Part shown: positions 6,065 to 30,816 of the stretch, in pieces | Layout of the letters: every line of letters begins with the position of its first letter | How positions within the stretch are numbered: the stretch's first letter is position 1 | From: a virus | Lineage: Duplodnaviria; Heunggongvirae; Uroviricota; Caudoviricetes | Strand: one strand, 5' to 3' | IMG/VR virus record: IMGVR_UViG_2565956731_000005 | Location: 1 to 42,839 of that record | Length of the DNA stretch: 42,839 nucleotides | Program-made: the position numbers and the translations under genes | Notes under the pieces: generated by a model | The model's input: only the letters and a program-made list of their open reading frames with translations | Told to the model about the DNA's origin: nothing | Database searches by the model: none

Positions 6065-6081
6065 ATTACCTTTCAGGTAAT
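6065..6081. promoter_or_regulatory. 17-bp palindromic operator ATTACCTTTCAGGTAAT
   Basis: Perfect inverted repeat ATTACC-N5-GGTAAT; one of 12 copies of the same motif found at promoter regions in this window. Confidence 0.6.
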
Positions 6082-7295: not shown

Positions 7296-7385
7296 TTTAC
7301 ATCGCACTCCTCTTGTGCCATAGTAATCGGGTACTGGCAAAATCCAGTGCCGGGATTGGCGTCCCGAGTTACTAAGTGGCGCATA

Positions 7386-7407
7386 CCACGCCAGACGTGG
7401 TTTTTTT
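7386..7407 (+). terminator. Rho-independent terminator in the ant leader
   Basis: CCACG-CCAGA-CGTGG hairpin followed by TTTTTTT, about 155 bp upstream of the ant start codon. Confidence 0.65.
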
Positions 7408-7563
7408 ATGCGTTAAGCACAGCTATATCCGAATTATGGTGGGCTGGGCAGGGGTCCGAAAGGACGCCGGTACCACTTAGGCCGGTACGCCAACCTTGTC
7501 CAGTTCACCACCAGTAATTGGCGTTGCGGTGGTGATTAAAATCACTAAGTGGAGATAACCACC

Positions 7564-9205: not shown

Positions 9206-9217
9206 GTGACATGTCAC
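9206..9217. repeat. Perfect 12-bp palindrome GTGACATGTCAC (copy 1 of 3)
   Basis: Identical 12-mer also at 26395..26406 and 30805..30816; flanking sequence is not conserved. Confidence 0.9.
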
Positions 9218-20971: not shown

Positions 20972-21409
20972 TTAACCAGTTACTTTTGAGCGGATCGGAT
21001 ACGGCGTATTGGCATCAACATCAAGACTGATACCAGCAGTGAATTTGCCGGCCGTTAGTGGGCCAGTTGCGACGGAGTAGTTAACACGCAGATATCGCTG
21101 AACACCGGCAGGCACCTTTGCAGAAACAACACGTTTACCTGCAGTCATGGTGGCCTTTGCCAACGCACCACTATCATAAATAGTGGTCCAAGAGCTGTTA
21201 TTCTCACTCGTCTGCAACTGGATGTTTACAGTTGCCTCACCACTTGCCGTGGCGGCTTCGTTAACCAGCGCCCAAAACTCAAGCGGGTAACCCACGCCGA
21301 TATCGCGACGATTTCCATCAATTGGACCAAGATCGATTACGTCAGTAGAAGCCGCGGTATCAGTTACCGCCTGTGCTTCGGAGAACATCAACAGTTTGTC
21401 GGTGATCAT
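20972..21409 (-). CDS. Hypothetical capsid-associated protein (decoration-like)
   Basis: 145-aa ORF directly after the major capsid gene; beta-rich composition. Confidence 0.45.
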   Translation of the reverse strand: MITDKLLMFSEAQAVTDTAASTDVIDLGPIDGNRRDIGVGYPLEFWALVNEAATASGEATVNIQLQTSENNSSWTTIYDSGALAKATMTAGKRVVSAKVPAGVQRYLRVNYSVATGPLTAGKFTAGISLDVDANTPYPIRSKVTG

Positions 21410-21460
21410 CTTCTTTCTCCATTAGTGGGTCTGTTACGACCCACTGGTTAATAACAGGCG

Positions 21461-22453
21461 TTACACCACACGGGCTTCTGTTTCCAGAAGCGCATCAGTT
21501 TCACGGATTGGTACACCACGGAATGAAGTCCACCACTCGCCTTCTGTCTCTTTTACGCTGATCGCCAGAGATGTTTTCTCCAGAGATTGCAGATCAAGAG
21601 CCTGGCCTACAGTGCGGTTCATGTAGAACACCGGGCGACCCATTCCACGGTTTGGAATGCGATGCAGTGCTTTAACCATCAACTTCGCAATATTTGTGGC
21701 AGAGGAAGGTTCTGAAAGATTGCTGACATCGATGTTTGCAATGCGAACAACATAACGCCAGTCACGCAGAGCAAGTCCGTTGTCCCATTTGTAATGGGTG
21801 CGATAGCCTTCGTACTTGCCGCCATTAGCATCTTCCAGTGTCACCTGGCCTTTATCTTCCATCTGGATGCCAGCCTTCTGCCCTTTCGGGAAGATGCCAT
21901 GCACGGTGTTTTCGCCCCACACCACTAACCAGATTGAGGTGTTATCTGTACCCGTGCCACCAGCATCAATGATGTTCTGAGCATTACCCGCAGACAGGCT
22001 GGAATAGCGGGAGGACAGTCCCATAAACTGCTGAGGGTTAACGCTGGAATCACCATAAAACAGCGTCTGCGCCATCTGCTGATTCATCGCTTCAATAAAT
22101 GCGCGGTCTTCAGACAGGCGGAATTCAGCGGTATTGCCGTTCAGATCAGCCAGTGACTTATCGACTTCAGCATAGGTTTCCAGCATGCCAATGGAATCAG
22201 TGACCTGCACCGTTGTTGATTTGCTCGGTTGTACGCCATAGTTCAGCAAACGCCAGGTAGCGGAAGGTAAACCAGAACGAATGGTGGTTCGGTGTCCGGT
22301 AGGAAGGTTTCCTTCAACAAAAGGCATATCCTGAAGGATTGGGTTAGTTTGACTGAGAAGCTCGATAATCTTATCGACTTTCCCGTTTGGATCGACGCGC
22401 TTACCCCAGTCAGCCAGCGTTAGCGCAGTTAAGCCTTTAACAGCCATTGTCAT
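21461..22453 (-). CDS. Major capsid protein
   Basis: 330 aa, directly downstream of an acidic scaffold-like gene; a stem-loop follows the gene, as after T7 gene 10. Confidence 0.7.
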   Translation of the reverse strand: MTMAVKGLTALTLADWGKRVDPNGKVDKIIELLSQTNPILQDMPFVEGNLPTGHRTTIRSGLPSATWRLLNYGVQPSKSTTVQVTDSIGMLETYAEVDKSLADLNGNTAEFRLSEDRAFIEAMNQQMAQTLFYGDSSVNPQQFMGLSSRYSSLSAGNAQNIIDAGGTGTDNTSIWLVVWGENTVHGIFPKGQKAGIQMEDKGQVTLEDANGGKYEGYRTHYKWDNGLALRDWRYVVRIANIDVSNLSEPSSATNIAKLMVKALHRIPNRGMGRPVFYMNRTVGQALDLQSLEKTSLAISVKETEGEWWTSFRGVPIRETDALLETEARVV

Positions 22454-22461
22454 TTCCTCTC

Positions 22462-23163
22462 TTATTTGCCATAGAGCACTTCGGCCGCACTACGCTGGCC
22501 TTCATTACCACCGGTGACCATGCCATCTTCAGACATCGCCTTTCCGATTTTCACGAACGTTTTGACCAGATCAGGGTGATTACCCAGCCCGGTGGTGTTC
22601 AGATATTCTTTGAGTTCAGGTGTCCCGAACTGGTCAAGCGCACGCTGTGCGGCGCTAAGGTTAGAAATCAACTTGTCGCCACCGATTTCTTTGTCAGCTT
22701 TTACATCCGCAGCCCACTGCTCGGTTGTTTTCTGCCAGGCTTCTGCCTGGCGCTGCTGAACACCTGCCAGAATCTTCGGATAAGCATCAACCAGCTTTTG
22801 CGCTTGCTCGTTGGTCAGGTTAAGTTCTCGCGCCACCGGCTCGAATTCCTTCAACGCTTCTGTATCCAGCTCTACGCCTTCGGCAGCCTGAAACTCGTAC
22901 TTCTCAGGCGCACCCTCTGGTTTATCGCCGTCCTTTTTTTCATCCTGCTTATCGTTTTCAGGCTTTTTGTCATCAGCAGGTTTATCGCCATCAGCAACAG
23001 GTTGTGGCTTATCACCTTCCTGTTGTGATGGATCACCAACTGGAGCAGGGTTATCACCTGCAGGCGCTGACGGTTCTGACGCAGCCGGAGCTGCTCCACC
23101 ATCGACTGGTTGCTCATTGCAAAGACGGCGATACAGCAAACGCTCAAATAAATTCATGATCAC
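22462..23163 (-). CDS. Scaffolding protein
   Basis: Highly acidic, Pro/Asp/Lys-rich low-complexity N-terminal half with a helical C-terminal half, between portal and capsid. Confidence 0.65.
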   Translation of the reverse strand: MIMNLFERLLYRRLCNEQPVDGGAAPAASEPSAPAGDNPAPVGDPSQQEGDKPQPVADGDKPADDKKPENDKQDEKKDGDKPEGAPEKYEFQAAEGVELDTEALKEFEPVARELNLTNEQAQKLVDAYPKILAGVQQRQAEAWQKTTEQWAADVKADKEIGGDKLISNLSAAQRALDQFGTPELKEYLNTTGLGNHPDLVKTFVKIGKAMSEDGMVTGGNEGQRSAAEVLYGK

Positions 23164-23456
23164 TCCTGTTCACTGGCCTCTTTGGCCATCTTCAAATACT
23201 GTTCAGGGCAATGCGCCATAACGCGCTGAAACAGTTCCAGCGCCAGATTGCGTTGCCCCTCATTAAATGCCATTGCCATAGCGTCCATCGGTGAGATAGC
23301 GGAAAACACACGGCCTTTCTCCAGCACCGACCAGACAACGCGACGCCCCTGTTCACTGCTCATGACAAAGCGAATGTCATCAATTTCACGCTGCGCCATG
23401 TCACGTTGCTTACGGGCGTTTTCTTCTTTCAGTTGATCGTCTTCGTAATCTGTCAT
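23160..23456 (-). CDS. Hypothetical head-module protein
   Basis: 98-aa ORF translationally coupled between the portal and scaffold genes. Confidence 0.5.
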   Translation of the reverse strand: MTDYEDDQLKEENARKQRDMAQREIDDIRFVMSSEQGRRVVWSVLEKGRVFSAISPMDAMAMAFNEGQRNLALELFQRVMAHCPEQYLKMAKEASEQE

Positions 23457-25132
23457 TGTGATTGCCCACCCTGACCACTAACTGCATTCGCCATAGCTGA
23501 CAAAACACTCGGATCCGAAGTTTTAGCTTCGCTTAGCGTCTTGGCACCCTGTGCCGCCGCCATCCCCATCGCCATCATTTGTTGCTGCTGTTGTTGCTGT
23601 GCCCGTTGCTGGCGAGCCTGCTCAACCTGTTCCTGCGGAACAATGACGGTTGGAGACACTCCTGACATATCAGCGAATGCATCGATCGCCTGATCAACGT
23701 TGAGTTTGTCGAGAGCTTCTGGTTTCGCTTGCGCAAGTTGACCAATGAAGTTGACCGTAGACGCCAGACTGGACAGGCCGATAGACTTCTGCGCCTGAGC
23801 CATGACGGAAATGTATTCGACCTTCAGGGGCATACCTTCCATCGCGTCAGGCGGTGGCGGCAGCATGTTTTTACGCACCATCATCGAGAAAGCGCGGTCA
23901 ATGAGAGGATTAAGACATTCGTCGTTCAGACGCTCCAGAACCGGCCCCAACATCAGAAGTTTTTCTTCTTTCATTTCGATCACTGCTTCAACAGGCATCG
24001 AGCGGGTATTGATGTTCTGCAACATCATGAACAGATCGACAAAGTAGGCGCTGTTAATGATTTGACGAGTGTCCTGAATGTCTGCTACCAGATCTGCTGT
24101 ACTGGGGTTAACCAGATAAGCAGGCCTGAAGCCATCCTGACCAGTAATCTGATCGATATACGTGATGTCGCCAGGAAGAAGGGAGGCGCGCTGATTCTTG
24201 AGGGAAGTCGGAGCAACCATCGGCGGATTGGTGGCTTTATCAATCAACTGCGACTTGCGCTTCTGGAGAAGTTGCAATGCCTTAACAGGTCCAAGCGCCA
24301 GCATACCCGGGCATGATGATCCATAAACATCTTCGCCATTAACTTCCCAGCGCGGAGCCATAATTGGAAACTCATCAAATCCGGACTCACGCAACAACTT
24401 GTCGTTATCGCCACCAACCTCGTAATAAACCGATTTGAATGGCTTGTTCTTGCTATCCAGCTTCGATGTATCGCGGTCAATGTTCGGGTAAACCGAATGC
24501 ATCACTTCAATCCACTTCTCGTAGGTGCCGCTTTCCCACATGCTTTTTACGGATTCGCTGACGTTATTTAGTCCGAACTCCTGAACAAGCTGACGAACAG
24601 TCATAGAGAACTTGCGAAAACAGGTGTCCACATTGCCACGAGGTGAGTTAGCCAGGTAGTAACTTCCTATCGGGAATGGCATTGTACGAATGATGTCCTC
24701 GTCATCCTCCAGCACCGCCATTGCGCCAGTGCTGTATGTGCCGAGGCTTCCGTATAACTGCGGCAGCGACTGATAGAGATTCGACTTATTGAACATATCG
24801 TTCATGCGGTTCTGCACCGCCTCAAGCCACAACTTAACAGGGCCATAATCCATCATTTCAGGATCTGGCGTAGCCAGGCGAAACCACGGACGCGCGGGGC
24901 TTGTGATGCCTGACATCATGCCGCTGGCGAGAGTGCGCGCCGCCATAGTCCCGGTCGAATCAATAATGCGTGTATTGCGTCGATCGTTACGGTTGACCTC
25001 AGAAGTCAGAAAGCGGGAACCACGCGGGTTGATGTAATCACTCAACTCGCGCCAGTGCGGCTCGAACGACTGACGCTCGCTTTCAAGTTGTGCGAACTGT
25101 TTGTTCAATCGCTCTTTAGTTGTTTCCGCCAT
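23453..25132 (-). CDS. Portal (head-to-tail connector) protein
   Basis: 559 aa, the size and position of a T7 gp8-like portal; Gln/Met-rich C-terminus. Confidence 0.75.
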   Translation of the reverse strand: MAETTKERLNKQFAQLESERQSFEPHWRELSDYINPRGSRFLTSEVNRNDRRNTRIIDSTGTMAARTLASGMMSGITSPARPWFRLATPDPEMMDYGPVKLWLEAVQNRMNDMFNKSNLYQSLPQLYGSLGTYSTGAMAVLEDDEDIIRTMPFPIGSYYLANSPRGNVDTCFRKFSMTVRQLVQEFGLNNVSESVKSMWESGTYEKWIEVMHSVYPNIDRDTSKLDSKNKPFKSVYYEVGGDNDKLLRESGFDEFPIMAPRWEVNGEDVYGSSCPGMLALGPVKALQLLQKRKSQLIDKATNPPMVAPTSLKNQRASLLPGDITYIDQITGQDGFRPAYLVNPSTADLVADIQDTRQIINSAYFVDLFMMLQNINTRSMPVEAVIEMKEEKLLMLGPVLERLNDECLNPLIDRAFSMMVRKNMLPPPPDAMEGMPLKVEYISVMAQAQKSIGLSSLASTVNFIGQLAQAKPEALDKLNVDQAIDAFADMSGVSPTVIVPQEQVEQARQQRAQQQQQQQMMAMGMAAAQGAKTLSEAKTSDPSVLSAMANAVSGQGGQSQ

Positions 25133-25146
25133 TTCAATGACTCCGG

Positions 25147-25353
25147 TTACTGACCAAGCAGCGTTTTACCGCTGGTATTAGCGGTTGATGTGTCGCCCTG
25201 AGAACCGGTAAGCAGCGTAGAACTACGACCAGCAGCAGCGCGACGGCGACGAGTTTCTTCGTCGCGGGCATCAACAACGGCGGCATCCTGCTCCTGTGGT
25301 GCTGCCTGAACTTCTGGTGTTGCAGGCACTGACGGTGAGCTACCCATGCACAT
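25147..25353 (-). CDS. Small Ala/Thr-rich protein upstream of portal
   Basis: RBS GGAG 8 nt upstream of the ATG; ends 15 bp before the portal start. Low complexity, so uncertain. Confidence 0.4.
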   Translation of the reverse strand: MCMGSSPSVPATPEVQAAPQEQDAAVVDARDEETRRRRAAAGRSSTLLTGSQGDTSTANTSGKTLLGQ

Positions 25354-25442
25354 ATCAATGACTCCGTACGCAATTTAATTATTACCAATTTAACCACATA
25401 TGATTTATTTATCGTAGATAGTTGACATTTAACGCACGAATT

Positions 25443-25459
25443 ATTACCTTCCAGGTAAG
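25443..25459. promoter_or_regulatory. Operator-like palindrome ATTACCTTCCAGGTAAG, with TTGACA at 25422..25427
   Basis: Motif copy downstream of a consensus -35 hexamer; points rightward toward the tRNA. Confidence 0.45.
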
Positions 25460-25780
25460 TAAATGGTTCATTCCGGTTATTAACCTGACTGGCTTGTCGT
25501 TAAATTGAACAGGTGGAGTGAGCTTTTATTTTGAGCAGTACGGCGTATGGCACATGCGCCGATAGCGGTCTGGATACGTTTAAGGGGCCCCCTCCCTTGC
25601 TCGGGCAAACGAACCAGGTAGCCGGAATGTGCAAGTCGAGCGGTTTTATTCCGCGCACGGGGATTCACCATCCCGGCGATTCGGTGTGACGCCTCGGAAG
25701 AGACGAGGGTACAACGATGAGAGCATTTATGGAGCCGCGACAAAGTGTGGCGCCTTAACAGGCTAAGTGCTCTCAGCGTT

Positions 25781-25857
25781 GTGGCATTAGCTCAGTTGGA
25801 CAGAGCAACCGCCTTCTAAGCGGTTGGTCGCAGGTTCGAATCCTGCATGCCACGCCA
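25781..25857 (+). tRNA. tRNA-Arg (anticodon UCU), CCA end encoded
   Basis: Cloverleaf folded by hand: acceptor GTGGCAT/ATGCCAC, D-arm GCTC-AGTTGGACA-GAGC, anticodon stem ACCGC/GCGGT with loop CTTCTAA, T-arm GCAGG-TTCGAAT-CCTGC, discriminator G then CCA. Resembles argU. Confidence 0.9.
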
Positions 25858-25900
25858 GAATCACGCCTAAGGACCGTGATGCCAGAAGTTCCAGGGGCTT

Positions 25901-25942
25901 GGCGGTGATGGTTTCCCTTGAAGGGCTATCACCGCCCTTTTT
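25901..25942 (+). terminator. Rho-independent terminator T1 downstream of the tRNA
   Basis: Long hairpin GGCGGTGAT…ATCACCGCC followed by CTTTTT. Confidence 0.7.
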
Positions 25943-26020
25943 ACAGCAGGACGCCATTGCGATGACTTCATGCTGTAAACCAGTACAGCCACGGAAGGCA
26001 TAACTCATTGCTTCCAGTTC

Positions 26021-26045
26021 GCCCGGTTCGTCCGGGCATTTTTTT
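26021..26045 (+). terminator. Rho-independent terminator T2
   Basis: GCCCGG-TTCGT-CCGGGC followed by ATTTTTTT; the T-run abuts the RBS of the next ORF. Confidence 0.7.
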
Positions 26046-26057
26046 AAGGTGAAAATC

Positions 26058-26390
26058 ATGAAAGAGAAGACTGCAGCTGAGCGCTATGCCGCAGCTATCA
26101 ATGCCGCGATGGCGATTGTAAACCTGCGTGAAGAGATTAAAGATCTCCTTGCAATTATCCATAACAACCTGACATGTACAGAGTTGCTTGGCGGTCAGTA
26201 CAACGGTGAGGCGGTGAAGGAGGCATTTAAAAATGCCGAGGTAGGAATAATTCCAGCAAACTATGTCAAGGCTGAATGTGTGCTCCTAAAGGCACGAGTG
26301 AGTCTGCATGAAGATCCTGGTAATCTCGGTCGAACTGCAATGCGTTACGTGATAGACGAGTCGAATGCCAAACACAATCTACCGAAATAA
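26058..26390 (+). CDS. Hypothetical protein (moron, antisense to the late operon)
   Basis: RBS AAGG 8 nt upstream of the ATG at 26058 (the track GTG start is 26049); followed by the palindrome and a terminator. Confidence 0.5.
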   Translation: MKEKTAAERYAAAINAAMAIVNLREEIKDLLAIIHNNLTCTELLGGQYNGEAVKEAFKNAEVGIIPANYVKAECVLLKARVSLHEDPGNLGRTAMRYVIDESNAKHNLPK

Positions 26391-26394
26391 CACC

Positions 26395-26406
26395 GTGACA
26401 TGTCAC
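26395..26406. repeat. Perfect 12-bp palindrome GTGACATGTCAC (copy 2 of 3)
   Basis: Begins 5 bp after the stop of 26058..26390. Confidence 0.9.
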
Positions 26407-26410
26407 AAAC

Positions 26411-26437
26411 AGCCAGCCTATGAGCTGGCTTTGTTTT
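26411..26437 (+). terminator. Rho-independent terminator
   Basis: AGCCAGC-CTATG-AGCTGGCT followed by TTGTTTT. Confidence 0.65.
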
Positions 26438-26480
26438 ATCCTCACCAGAGGATATCAACGACATTATCCCCACCAGCGGA

Positions 26481-29126
<2,646 letters not shown>

Positions 29127-29915
29127 GAAGTCGCTGTCTTCCCCGTAGTCATCAACCCATTTCTGCAACTGCTGTTTGTTAGTGCCTTCCACCGTCCGGC
29201 TGTCAATCTGCGCAGTTTTCCAGCGGTGTTTATATTTGCGGAAACATTCGCGGAAACGCCCGGTGTTACGTGTAGGGTTTCCGAACGCCACCCAGATAAT
29301 CTCAGTGTCTTCGTCCGTAAGCGCACCCTCAGCAACTTCCCACACCAGATCCGCAATGTTCGACGCTTCATCGAATACCACGATGATGCGTTTGCGCTCG
29401 TTGTGTAGTCCTGCGAATGCCTCAGTGTTGTGCTCAGACCAGGGGATTGCGTCAGCCCGCCACCGCTTGTCGTGCCCAGGATCATTGCTGTACATCGCGG
29501 TAGCGGTACAGGTAAACCAGTCTTTCGTGATAGCAAGGTTCGACCACTTGATAATTTCCGGCCAGGTCTTCGTTCGTAGCTGGTTGTCGGTGTTGGCGGT
29601 CACCACGACCTTACAATCCTCGCAAGTGGACATGCCCCAGTTGATCAGCATTGAGATGAATGCGGATTTACCAATACCGTGACCAGAAGCGCGTGCCAGC
29701 ATAAGCGGCTGATAGCGCGTCTCTGGATTCTGCAGGTGATCACGTATCTCTCGGAACGCATCAGCCTGCCACTGACGTGGGCCGGTGGCATGTGCCAGTT
29801 CAGTCCCCTCTTCCCCCCATGGGAACGCATAGAGGGCATAGCCAAGCGGATCGTGAGTGAACCCTGCAATATCCTCGATTAACTGCTCTTCAGGAGATAA
29901 CGCTGTATCTGTCAC
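29127..29915 (-). pseudogene. Terminase large subunit, N-terminal (ATPase) fragment
   Basis: Walker A-like ASGHGIGKS; start overlaps the terS stop. The track ORF's last residues ([18 protein letters not shown]) are translated from the IS end, not from terminase. Confidence 0.8.
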
Positions 29916-30586: not shown

Positions 30587-30816
30587 AGTCCATCAAATTC
30601 ATCGTAAAAACTCTCGTCAAGATACCCTTCCCATTTACCGCGAATGAAAATTACATCCTCGCCGCAAGGGTGCTGACTGTCGATAACTATATCCCTCCTG
30701 GCGCAACCATACTTATGCATGAGAAATTTAACCTCTTTCGGAAAATTTGCTGAGTTATCTCTCATATCTTCAAGGTCGTAGCGTATTTTTGGCATAACAC
30801 CTTCGTGACATGTCAC
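30583..30816 (-). CDS. Hypothetical protein upstream of terS
   Basis: Track start is a GTG inside the palindrome; an alternative ATG lies at about 30795. Coupled to terS. Confidence 0.4.
   Translation of the reverse strand: MTCHEGVMPKIRYDLEDMRDNSANFPKEVKFLMHKYGCARRDIVIDSQHPCGEDVIFIRGKWEGYLDESFYDEFDGL
30805..30816. repeat. Perfect 12-bp palindrome GTGACATGTCAC (copy 3 of 3)
   Basis: Lies at the junction of genes 30813..31154 and 30583..30816, just upstream of the packaging genes. Confidence 0.9.

Follow-up and report, generated by a model that had tools for sequence, protein, structure and literature searches.

IMG/VR record IMGVR_UViG_2565956731_000005 comprises a 42,839-nucleotide (nt) stretch of DNA, here called the window, that is a prophage of the epsilon15/phiV10 type (Uetakevirus). 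A plus-strand transcription unit sits in it between the gp3/portal gene (Pfam Head-tail_con) and terL, both of which lie on the minus strand, and the region from 25350 to 26480 is 97-98% identical to phiV10, TL-2011b and their relatives over the parts they share. An earlier description made from the letters of this DNA alone (the sequence-only reading) had listed an operator-tagged promoter, a stretch free of open reading frames (ORFs), a transfer RNA (tRNA) gene, terminators, a 110-amino-acid (aa) ORF and a 12-bp palindrome, all of which were located again, and had presented the whole as a tRNA island with a leader. Comparison with other phages inverts that emphasis: the promoter and a structured RNA within the ORF-free leader are conserved, and the tRNA is exchangeable, as phages Tyrion and PAT1 illustrate. 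As judged from covariation among homologues, positions 25540-25783 specify an RNA of about 245 nt, referred to below as the element, with six covarying helices and at least one covarying pseudoknot. Minus-strand late transcripts plausibly read antisense through the unit, as the sequence-only reading had proposed.

Comparative evidence for the RNA fold

A manual model of the core, consisting of helices P1, P2, P4 and P5 and two pseudoknots (Table 1), was tested on 37 representatives less than 85% identical to one another (alignment A2). The 31 pairs in 6 helices are formed in 98.1% of the alignment cells, compared with 25-50% when the 3' partners are slid along the sequence. Compensatory, two-sided changes were seen at 12 pairs, and the observed covariation (0.225, against 0.107 after shuffling) was reached in 0 of 500 shuffles. 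In P1, position 5:17 changes from G-C (15 sequences) to A-U (21 sequences), and in P2 a C-G pair becomes U-A. P4 tolerates A-U, U-G, C-G and U-A, while P5 passes from CCUCG/CGAGG through GCCGG/CCGGC to CCUGG/CCAGG. The loop of pseudoknot PK2 pairs as CACC with GGUG in some copies and as AACC with GGUU in others. Both strands of PK1 are invariant, one C-to-U change yields a G-U pair and two singleton variants break the pairing; because of the invariance, PK1 remains an unproven candidate.

The 3' domain behaves in the same way. P6a is paired in 99.4% and P6b in 91.9% of cases (0 of 500 shuffles), and six pairs have changed on both sides, for example GAGCGCAC/GUGCGCUC and GAUGGCUUUCU/AGAGAGUCAUC. 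A helix search found P6 in 141 of 144 loci, with an apical insert of between 27 and about 190 nt. In the window, tRNA nucleotides 1-3 are shared with the 3' strand of P6a (GUUGUG). The GUUGUGG tail was found in 119 of 160 loci, both with and without a tRNA after it; many tRNA-less copies carry an extra covarying hairpin, GCGCA-GGCUGA-UGCGC, after this tail. The invariant blocks of the alignment (CGGCGUAUGGCACAUGCGCCG, AGCGGUC, GGUAGCCGGAAUGUGCAAG, GGCGAU.CGGUGUGAC and GGAAGAG) are separated by stretches of variable length and sequence. Since G-U pairs are abundant, the fold is specific to the plus strand. The single-sequence minimum free energy (MFE) of the leader is indistinguishable from that of shuffled sequences (z = -0.17), so the evidence for the fold is comparative rather than thermodynamic. 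With a covariance model derived from A2, the copy in the window scores 163.9 bits (E 7.6e-52), and no second copy was detected in the window or at any of 35 loci, a search that covered the pR sides of cdtI and mEp460.

No reading frame is preserved across the element. The best frame is open through the core in only 14 of 33 homologues, the spacings between invariant blocks occupy all three classes modulo 3, and 25460-25780 holds short ORFs only, none of them conserved, in agreement with the sequence-only reading, which had seen no credible ORF there. Frame analysis ruled out small ORFs on both strands, among them the annotated mEp460_037 and, in antisense, PhiV10p04. Deposited coding sequences for hypothetical proteins overlap the element or the tRNA, on either strand, in several records: mEp460_037 (locus L003, 2443-2811), PhiV10p04 (L001, 2938-3189) and mEp390_036 (L015, 1511-1753). 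Given that no frame is conserved, these are probably mis-annotations. A tRNA-like fold downstream of the element in cdtI was also considered and rejected; its MFE structure is a four-way junction, but its z-score is -0.58 and it has no Rfam tRNA match.

Rfam 15 contains no match to the leader (25460-25780) even at E<=10 with permissive filters, and the homologous loci gave none either. Run over the whole window at Rfam gathering thresholds, the search returned only the tRNA, C4 and isrK, all outside the leader. The question whether the leader corresponds to an element already on record therefore has a divided answer: it does match a widespread element, but one that is undescribed in Rfam 15 and in the literature searched. 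No description of this RNA was found in the full-text literature that was searched, which mostly leaves out subscription journals, so that a prior description is possible; the literature covered includes cryo-EM work on put and on ROOL and GOLLD, surveys of viral csRNAs and of ncRNAs in 50 genomes, and papers on Pas sRNAs, lambda PreS and the mEp phages. The RNA family was previously unannotated, with no Rfam family and no annotation in phage records or in the 737 Escherichia coli genomes described below.

Distribution and genomic setting of the element

A blastn search with 25440-25785 matched 86 phage records, at one place per record, and unrelated phages share a core of 165-245 nt that is 70-83% identical. 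Carriers include the P1-like phages P1, P7, D6, SJ46 and RCS47; the lambdoid phages cdtI, mEp460, mEp390, Ayreon and 2H10, together with Stx2a, Stx2c and Stx2k converting phages and SfV-like phages; Klebsiella phages, among them the Lastavirus SopranoGao; and Uetakeviruses, among them phiV10 and SPN1S. One more copy, from a phage whose label gives Stenotrophomonas as its host, differs very little from the Klebsiella copies. The exact 19-mer GGTAGCCGGAATGTGCAAG occurs in at least 120 IMG/VR contigs and in 24 species-level genomes, all of them from Enterobacterales except two metagenome-assembled contigs. By megablast, the 198-nt core is present in 737 of 5426 complete E. coli genomes (about 14%), at 519 chromosomal and 274 plasmid locations, and in none of the 737 does an annotated feature underlie it. 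A metagenome scan with two other blocks yielded about 90 true members among 120 matches, some of which have one or two substitutions in the 19-mer. A wider taxonomic range was considered, and the soil and compost matches to a 17-base pattern proved to be chance, since the rest of the element is missing from them. Among the Uetakeviruses, blastn matches to Tyrion, PAT1 and epsilon15 begin in the 5' extension at 25493-25539. The epsilon15 copy is a degenerate, internally deleted remnant (L005, 1531-1671; 48 bits) with no tRNA; its depositors annotated an 'RNaseIII' processing site over the remnant, on the opposite strand.

In lambdoid phages a pL-like promoter precedes the element by 50-125 nt. 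Of 127 loci, 62 carry a gene for an S24 cI-type repressor directly before the element and on its strand. The arrangement is clearest in cdtI, where the cI stop codon comes first, then an intrinsic terminator (2394-2411), then a promoter close to consensus (TTGACA-16-CATAAT, 2421-2448), which is overlaid by operator-like repeats also found in the cI-cro region, and finally the element from about 2499; the same order recurs in loci L014, L015 and L020. The -10 hexamer ends 49-56 nt upstream of the element in about 28 loci and 8-9 nt upstream in a few. This order of promoter and element places the element in the lambdoid pL leader, at the position of lambda nutL and HK022 putL. A further 300-400 nt of untranslated sequence separate the element from the first ORF in lambdoid carriers, which have untranslated leaders of 600 nt.

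The setting differs in the P1-like phages, where the element begins 17-19 nt after a tRNA with a CAU anticodon (annotated as Ile2 in phage P1) and precedes ban. The C1-controlled ban operon of phage P1 has the order Pban/Op72, dicF-like region, tRNA-Asn, tRNA-Thr, tciABC, trnI, element, ban. With its dicF-like region, three tRNAs and element, this operon (L283/L004; P1 AF234173, 68332-70976) may be described as an 'RNA operon' analogous to the window unit, and a sub-threshold Rfam match to STnc100 lies between upl and tciA (L004, 1058-1177). In Uetakeviruses the element follows a conserved, operator-overlapped promoter, and is itself followed by tRNA-Arg in phiV10, SPN1S and the Klebsiella copies; Tyrion and PAT1 have the element and no tRNA within 1 kb. 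Overall, an adjacent same-strand tRNA was found in 48 of 136 loci and none in the other 88. Where a tRNA is present the junction is fixed, with tRNA-Arg 72-137 nt downstream or the CAU-anticodon tRNA 17-19 nt upstream. No protein family consistently co-occurs with the element among the neighbouring genes of 127 loci, and no copy has a terminator of its own, the element always being read into downstream sequence. What every locus shows is that the element is co-directional with an early or accessory operon under the control of a phage repressor, usually in a promoter-proximal position.

Promoter, tRNA and other cargo of the unit

The promoter-like site of the window unit consists of a -35 hexamer TTGACA (25422-25427), a 17-nt spacer and a -10 hexamer TACCTT (25445-25450). 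A generic promoter scan missed this site, whose -10 is weak. A palindromic operator, TTACCTTCCAGGTAA (TTACC-N5-GGTAA), overlaps the promoter at 25444-25458, and transcription is predicted to start at about 25457. The promoter-operator block is near-invariant in all six aligned Uetakeviruses, from E. coli, Salmonella, Klebsiella and Enterobacter, and 25444-25458 coincides with the annotated lysogeny repressor-binding site of epsilon15. The window contains 11 exact copies of the operator (at 6066, 7187, 7280, 8345, 25444, 30526, 34461, 34523, 36854, 37566 and 37628) and three with one mismatch, a total of 14 against 0.69 expected that was reached in 0 of 100 shuffles. One pair of operators (30508, 30526) lies within or close to terS. 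Taken together, the 14 sites would map the regulon of the phage's repressor.

The tRNA-Arg(UCU) gene at 25781-25857 is complete, as had been read from the sequence; it is called by ARAGORN (as tRNA-Arg(TCT)) and scores 73.3 bits against the Rfam tRNA model (RF00005), for which the gathering score is 29. AGA makes up 12.4% of arginine codons, or 7.4 per 1000 codons, in 27 phage ORFs, compared with an average of about 2 per 1000 across the E. coli genome. AGA codons cluster in the tail-fibre, tail and early genes, and the head genes have none; it is plausible that the tRNA supplies a rare AGA decoder for the tail and early genes, a role that the sequence-only reading had also suggested. AGA, AGG and AUA are absent or nearly so throughout the head-morphogenesis genes (20972-25353) and frequent in the tail, tail-spike and early genes, a contrast between modules that suggests different evolutionary or expression histories. 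The comparison of loci indicates that the tRNA and the ORF are exchangeable cargo, and that the promoter-operator and the structured RNA are the conserved, ancestral parts. The tRNA is evidently optional, since Tyrion and PAT1 lack it and unrelated phages have either a different tRNA (P1) or none (lambdoid phages).

Terminators T1 and T2 both have conserved, covarying stems in relatives (alignment A5). The block between them, 25943-26045, is near-invariant across E. coli, Klebsiella and Salmonella relatives, and has no ORF and no promoter-like site; it may be a small RNA (sRNA) produced by read-through of T1. A RyhB-like sRNA before T2 was examined as a candidate, but the resemblance is weak (Rfam 22 bits, E 0.25) and the Klebsiella versions do not share it. 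The 3' part of the block matches the seed consensus of RyhB (AUUGCUUCCAGU) over 12 nt, in the E. coli copies only. The U-tract of T2 directly abuts a conserved Shine-Dalgarno (SD) sequence (GCAUUUUUUUAAGGUGA…AUG), just after which the ORFs diverge; this T2/SD junction (26038-26060, with homologous sites in L001, L011, L012, L032 and L107) forms a defined junction at which moron cassettes are exchanged. The 110-aa ORF belongs to phrog_27507 (E 3.5e-75) and has no match in Pfam, NCBIfam or the PDB. No promoter-like site was found between the upstream promoter and this ORF, which would therefore be expressible only through read-through of T1 and T2.

Cargo of other kinds follows the element elsewhere. 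D6 carries a gene for a Tad2-like protein (Pfam PF11195; L007, 1941-2516), and a cargo ORF of Klebsiella phage ST512-KPC3phi13.3 is annotated as DUF2829. In L014 an RprA-like module (1631-1750; Rfam RprA 50 bits, E 6.6e-4, below the gathering score) lies between the element and the early genes and contains the string AAUUGCUGUGUGUAGUCUU and a terminator. The module is also present in the mEp390 class and in L015, L020, L044, L045, L053, L060, L070 and L127, and may mimic the rpoS-activating sRNA of the host. Hairpins of the P5 type, with a GC stem closed by G-C and a GAAAGA or GAAGAGA loop, number 185 on the element strand and 4 on the other; 123 of the 185 are P5 itself, and the stems covary. 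In some pL leaders such boxB-like hairpins, again with covarying stems, occur up to five times around the element, some of them possibly inside small annotated ORFs.

Table 1. Features of the plus-strand unit and of the structured RNA in the window, with boxB-like hairpins of other loci
Feature	Position	Strand	Basis or remark
Promoter and operator	25422..25458	+	Sequence; conserved in 6 Uetakeviruses; operator over-represented; epsilon15 annotation
5' extension, Uetakevirus copies only (…CAGGUGGAGUGAGCUUU…)	25493..25539	+	blastn, alignment A3
Structured RNA core	25540..25708	+	Alignments A1 and A2, covariation, covariance model
Helix P1 hairpin	25541-25561	+	
Candidate pseudoknot PK1	25550-25555 / 25627-25632	+	Loop GCACAU with AUGUGC
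Helix P2	25565-25572 / 25615-25622	+	Closes variable insert
Invariant 19-mer GGUAGCCGGAAUGUGCAAG	25617-25635	+	
P4 hairpin	25660-25674	+	
Pseudoknot PK2	25666-25669 / 25683-25686	+	
boxB-like P5 hairpin CCUCG-GAAGAGA-CGAGG	25692-25708	+	
Structured RNA 3' domain, hairpin P6	25710..25783	+	Helix search, pair counts
P6a (…CAAC / GUUGUG)	25710-25715 / 25778-25783	+	
P6b (UGAGAGCAUU / AGUGCUCUCA)	25718-25727 / 25765-25775	+	Encloses variable apical insert
tRNA-Arg(UCU), CCA encoded	25781..25857	+	ARAGORN, Rfam
tRNA trailer hairpin (AUCACG…CGUGAU, 25860-25880) and terminator T1	25860..25942	+	Terminator scan
Terminator T1 stem, followed by U-tract	25901-25936	+	Terminator scan; covarying stem in relatives
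Inter-terminator RNA block ending in T2 (stem 26021-26037 and U7)	25943..26045	+	Alignment A5, terminator scan
Shine-Dalgarno AAGGUGA and 110-aa ORF (26058-26390)	26046..26390	+	phrog_27507, conserved SD
Palindrome GTGACATGTCAC (26395-26406) and terminator T3 (stem 26411-26430), unit end	26395..26437	+	Terminator scan, exact match
boxB-like hairpins, other loci	L014 1376-1395, 1428-1441, 1882-1895, 1932-1947; L015 1786-1801; L140/L160 +362, +438 from 19-mer		

The palindrome GTGACATGTCAC has three exact copies in the window (9206-9217, 26395-26406 and 30805-30816), where simple arithmetic gives about 0.003 expected copies of a given 12-mer. Each copy stands at the end of a transcription unit, immediately before or after a terminator-like site, and the palindrome may be the site of a second regulator or part of a bidirectional terminator. 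Beside the unit, terL is interrupted by an IS21-family element (istA 27259-28281, istB 28278-29060; split span 26484-29915), so that residues 1-270 of phiV10 TerL correspond to 29915-29106 and residues 254-491 to 27200-26484. With terL split in this way, the prophage has probably lost DNA packaging. Elsewhere in the window, isrK (7331-7407; 63.5 bits) and a C4 antisense RNA (7432-7515; 66 bits) are encoded on the plus strand. The pair is an immunity module of the P1/P7 immI (c4-ant) type, and the same pair precedes the antirepressor in cdtI (L002, 277-465).

Function of the element and comparison with known systems

The element is tentatively interpreted as a cis-acting elongation or antitermination leader, a function suggested by its sequence and position. 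According to this model, the RNA would fold co-transcriptionally and act in cis on the RNA polymerase that made it, either unaided, in the manner of HK022 put, or with the help of host Nus factors, in the manner of rrn and nut leaders. The modified polymerase would resist both Rho and intrinsic terminators, and transcription from about 25457 would pass the tRNA-Arg gene, T1, the inter-terminator RNA and T2 into the 110-aa ORF. T1 and T2 would still make the 3' ends of small RNAs from the fraction of transcripts that terminates there, and an RNase P cut at 25780/25781 would separate the leader RNA from the tRNA.

This model is favoured because the element occupies the nutL/putL position in phages where N was not detected; because long untranslated stretches and RNA genes, which are natural targets of Rho, lie downstream; because intrinsic terminators that would need read-through precede ORFs with a conserved ribosome-binding site; and because mEp460 and mEp390 come from a Nus-dependence collection and HK022 put provides a precedent at the same position. 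Pfam identified no N-like protein among the first genes, and no ORF with an arginine-rich motif (ARM) adjoins the element in 103 loci; one ARM-like ORF was seen about 3 kb downstream, in one class only. The early-left operon of mEp460 has no annotated N, the only regulator of this kind being a Q-like late one, and both mEp460 and mEp390 belong to a collection of phages selected for dependence on host Nus factors (PMC11893012). Two more features fit the model: the element is always read into downstream sequence, having no terminator of its own, and P5-like hairpins, which resemble boxB, recur on its strand. The model can be taken further, with slightly less assurance, to suppose that the element represents a new class of RNA-based processive antiterminator or anti-Rho element, the third after HK022 put and Bacillus EAR. 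It would then be the missing early antiterminator of N-less lambdoid phages (SfV/cdtI/mEp460-like phages and some Stx2 phages), co-opted by P1 and the Uetakeviruses to drive operons of untranslated cargo (tRNAs and sRNA mimics) and anti-defence genes, and perhaps directing assembly of host Nus factors without a phage protein.

Several observations weigh against an antitermination leader. The element has no sequence or covariance-model similarity to HK022 put, and the HK022 immunity region is unmatched. It is present as a single copy per genome, with no partner on the pR side, unlike putL/putR and nutL/nutR, and it contains no convincing boxA. About half of the loci, cdtI among them, lack a strict intrinsic terminator in the 600 nt that follow the element. 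The phage P1 copy lies mid-operon, 2.3 kb from the promoter, and not at the 5' end, while epsilon15 retains the promoter, operator, T2 and ORF with only a degenerate element (48 bits). The window unit is short and convergent with terL, such that processive antitermination would run antisense into terL unless T3 works. Finally, Q-like proteins could instead be the reason why the mEp phages depend on Nus factors.

The main rival is a trans-acting RNA. Here the element would be processed to a stable non-coding RNA that, free or as a ribonucleoprotein, acts on some conserved component of the host (the ribosome, a nuclease or a defence protein, for example); excision would depend on RNase P at the 5' end of the tRNA in the window and on tRNA 3' processing in phage P1. 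The end of the 3' helix falls precisely on the RNase P site of the tRNA, and junctions with same-strand tRNAs are fixed in the 48 of 136 loci that have them. Clustering with other small-RNA genes, namely the RprA-like module and the DicF-like region and tRNAs of the P1 ban operon, points in the same direction, and about 70 invariant nucleotides in joining regions, together with the two pseudoknots, suggest a compact globular fold. Parallels to such a free RNA would be ROOL and GOLLD (PMC12286853) and the T4 stable RNAs. While these features are consistent with a free RNA, in 88 of 136 copies neither end of the element shows a tRNA or another obvious signal for processing, terminators belonging to the element itself are missing throughout, and the neighbouring genes do not encode a conserved partner protein. 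Moreover, the place right after pL in 62 loci is typical of cis-acting leaders. A trans-acting RNA is considered only somewhat less likely than a cis-acting leader.

A riboswitch-like sensor of a metabolite or alarmone would also account for the 5' leader position and for highly conserved unpaired nucleotides framed by covarying helices and pseudoknots. Such a sensor would tune early-left expression, and hence the outcome of the lysis-lysogeny decision or the expression of anti-defence cargo, in which regard the Tad2-like genes among the downstream cargo are of interest. Alternative pairings can be drawn, with the P1 hairpin competing with long-range PK1, and the 5' flank GUUGU competing with the 3' tail GUUGUG for CAAC. 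However, there is no recognisable expression platform: the 3' end is overlapped by neither a terminator nor a helix that would sequester the SD. Genes of diverse kinds, often RNA genes, lie downstream, whereas riboswitches normally precede functionally coherent genes, and the phage P1 copy is in mid-operon, after a tRNA. A sensor of this kind is accordingly regarded as improbable.

Less probable still is an element of DNA or single-stranded DNA that serves, for instance, in priming (ssi), recombination or protein binding. The phage P1 copy is immediately upstream of the replicative helicase gene ban, and compensatory changes would preserve a single-stranded DNA fold as well. Set against this are the abundance of G-U (G-T) pairs with tolerated U-G to C-G exchanges, an orientation that always matches the transcription unit with a promoter just upstream, and the lack of any link to replication genes outside phage P1. 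Lastly, although the leader precedes a tRNA in the window and RNase P must cut at its 3' end, the idea that it is an ordinary, functionless tRNA precursor or small-ORF leader removed by that enzyme can be dismissed in view of the 70-83% identity in unrelated phages without that tRNA, the strong covariation and the lack of a conserved frame; of the two fates that the sequence-only reading had offered for the leader, the separate non-coding RNA survives, and the plain precursor falls to the covariation and the tRNA-less homologues.

Whichever mechanism applies, a large and well-supported structured RNA has gone unannotated in textbook phages, including P1, D6, Stx2-converting phages, phiV10, SPN1S and the mEp collection. 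The element heads a cassette in which tRNAs, sRNA mimics (RprA-like) and anti-defence genes (Tad2-like) are exchanged between phages, which makes it a useful marker for prophage annotation and for the discovery of new cargo. Should the element modify RNA polymerase, this would account for the expression of long early operons in N-less lambdoid phages, and the element would be the second natural enterobacterial example of RNA-only (or Nus-assisted) antitermination, one that is directly testable in E. coli. In kind, the element belongs with phage leader and structured RNAs; it would form a new class if it proves to be an RNA-based antiterminator or part of a new ribonucleoprotein.

The HK022 put RNA suppresses termination in cis through the zinc-binding domain of the beta' subunit of RNA polymerase. 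Like put, the element is a structured RNA just downstream of pL, at the head of a long early operon, in phages where N was not found. The absence of a co-occurring phage protein is a second likeness, as put RNA acts without phage proteins (PMC9378689). The two differ in size and complexity, the element having about 245 nt with six helices and pseudoknots and put about 74 nt with two stems. They also differ in number and range, since put is an L/R pair, and the element is single and is found in the non-lambdoid P1, Uetakevirus and Lastavirus groups as well. Furthermore, some carriers of the element come from a Nus-dependent collection, and antitermination by put is known, whereas that by the element is proposed by analogy. 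Homology to put was sought with 111 element variants against the HK022 immunity region (blastn) and rejected, the only result being a 14-17-nt chance match inside nun; covariance model R1 found nothing in the HK022 comparison locus (L137).

The element resembles lambda nut and rrn leaders in its leader position, and untranslated RNA genes follow it, as they do in rrn operons. P5 resembles lambda boxB, which is GCCCU-GAAGA-AGGGC, in having a 5-bp GC stem and a purine loop (GAAGAGA). The sole candidate for a boxA (GCUCUUUA-like) is UGCUCU, which is variable and forms one strand of the covarying helix P6b. Unlike lambda nut, the element is not accompanied by a detectable N-like ARM protein, and its conserved structure is far larger than a nut site. 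The EAR element of Bacillus subtilis, reportedly described by Irnov and Winkler in 2010, is said to be an intra-operon structured RNA that promotes processive antitermination, and the mid-operon copy in phage P1 recalls that arrangement; the element is unrelated to EAR in sequence and host and has no Rfam match.

Other parallels concern RNAs released from tRNA transcription units. The stable RNAs of phage T4 (species 1 and 2), whose function is unknown, are co-transcribed with the T4 tRNA cluster and released by tRNA-processing enzymes. Like them, the element of the window is a small RNA within a phage tRNA transcription unit, although most copies of the element are not adjacent to a tRNA and no similarity to the T4 RNAs is expected. 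ROOL and GOLLD are phage RNAs of unknown function that are 'often near tRNA islands' (PMC12286853). The Rfam models of these two families gave no match to the element at E<=10. It differs from them in its length (about 245 nt, compared with 600-800 nt), in its Enterobacterales hosts and in its fixed position behind repressor-controlled promoters. The element shares with both the properties of being encoded by phages and prophages, multi-pseudoknotted, often tRNA-adjacent and without a partner protein, and if it is a free RNA, it would be the proteobacterial counterpart of ROOL and GOLLD in a genetically tractable host.

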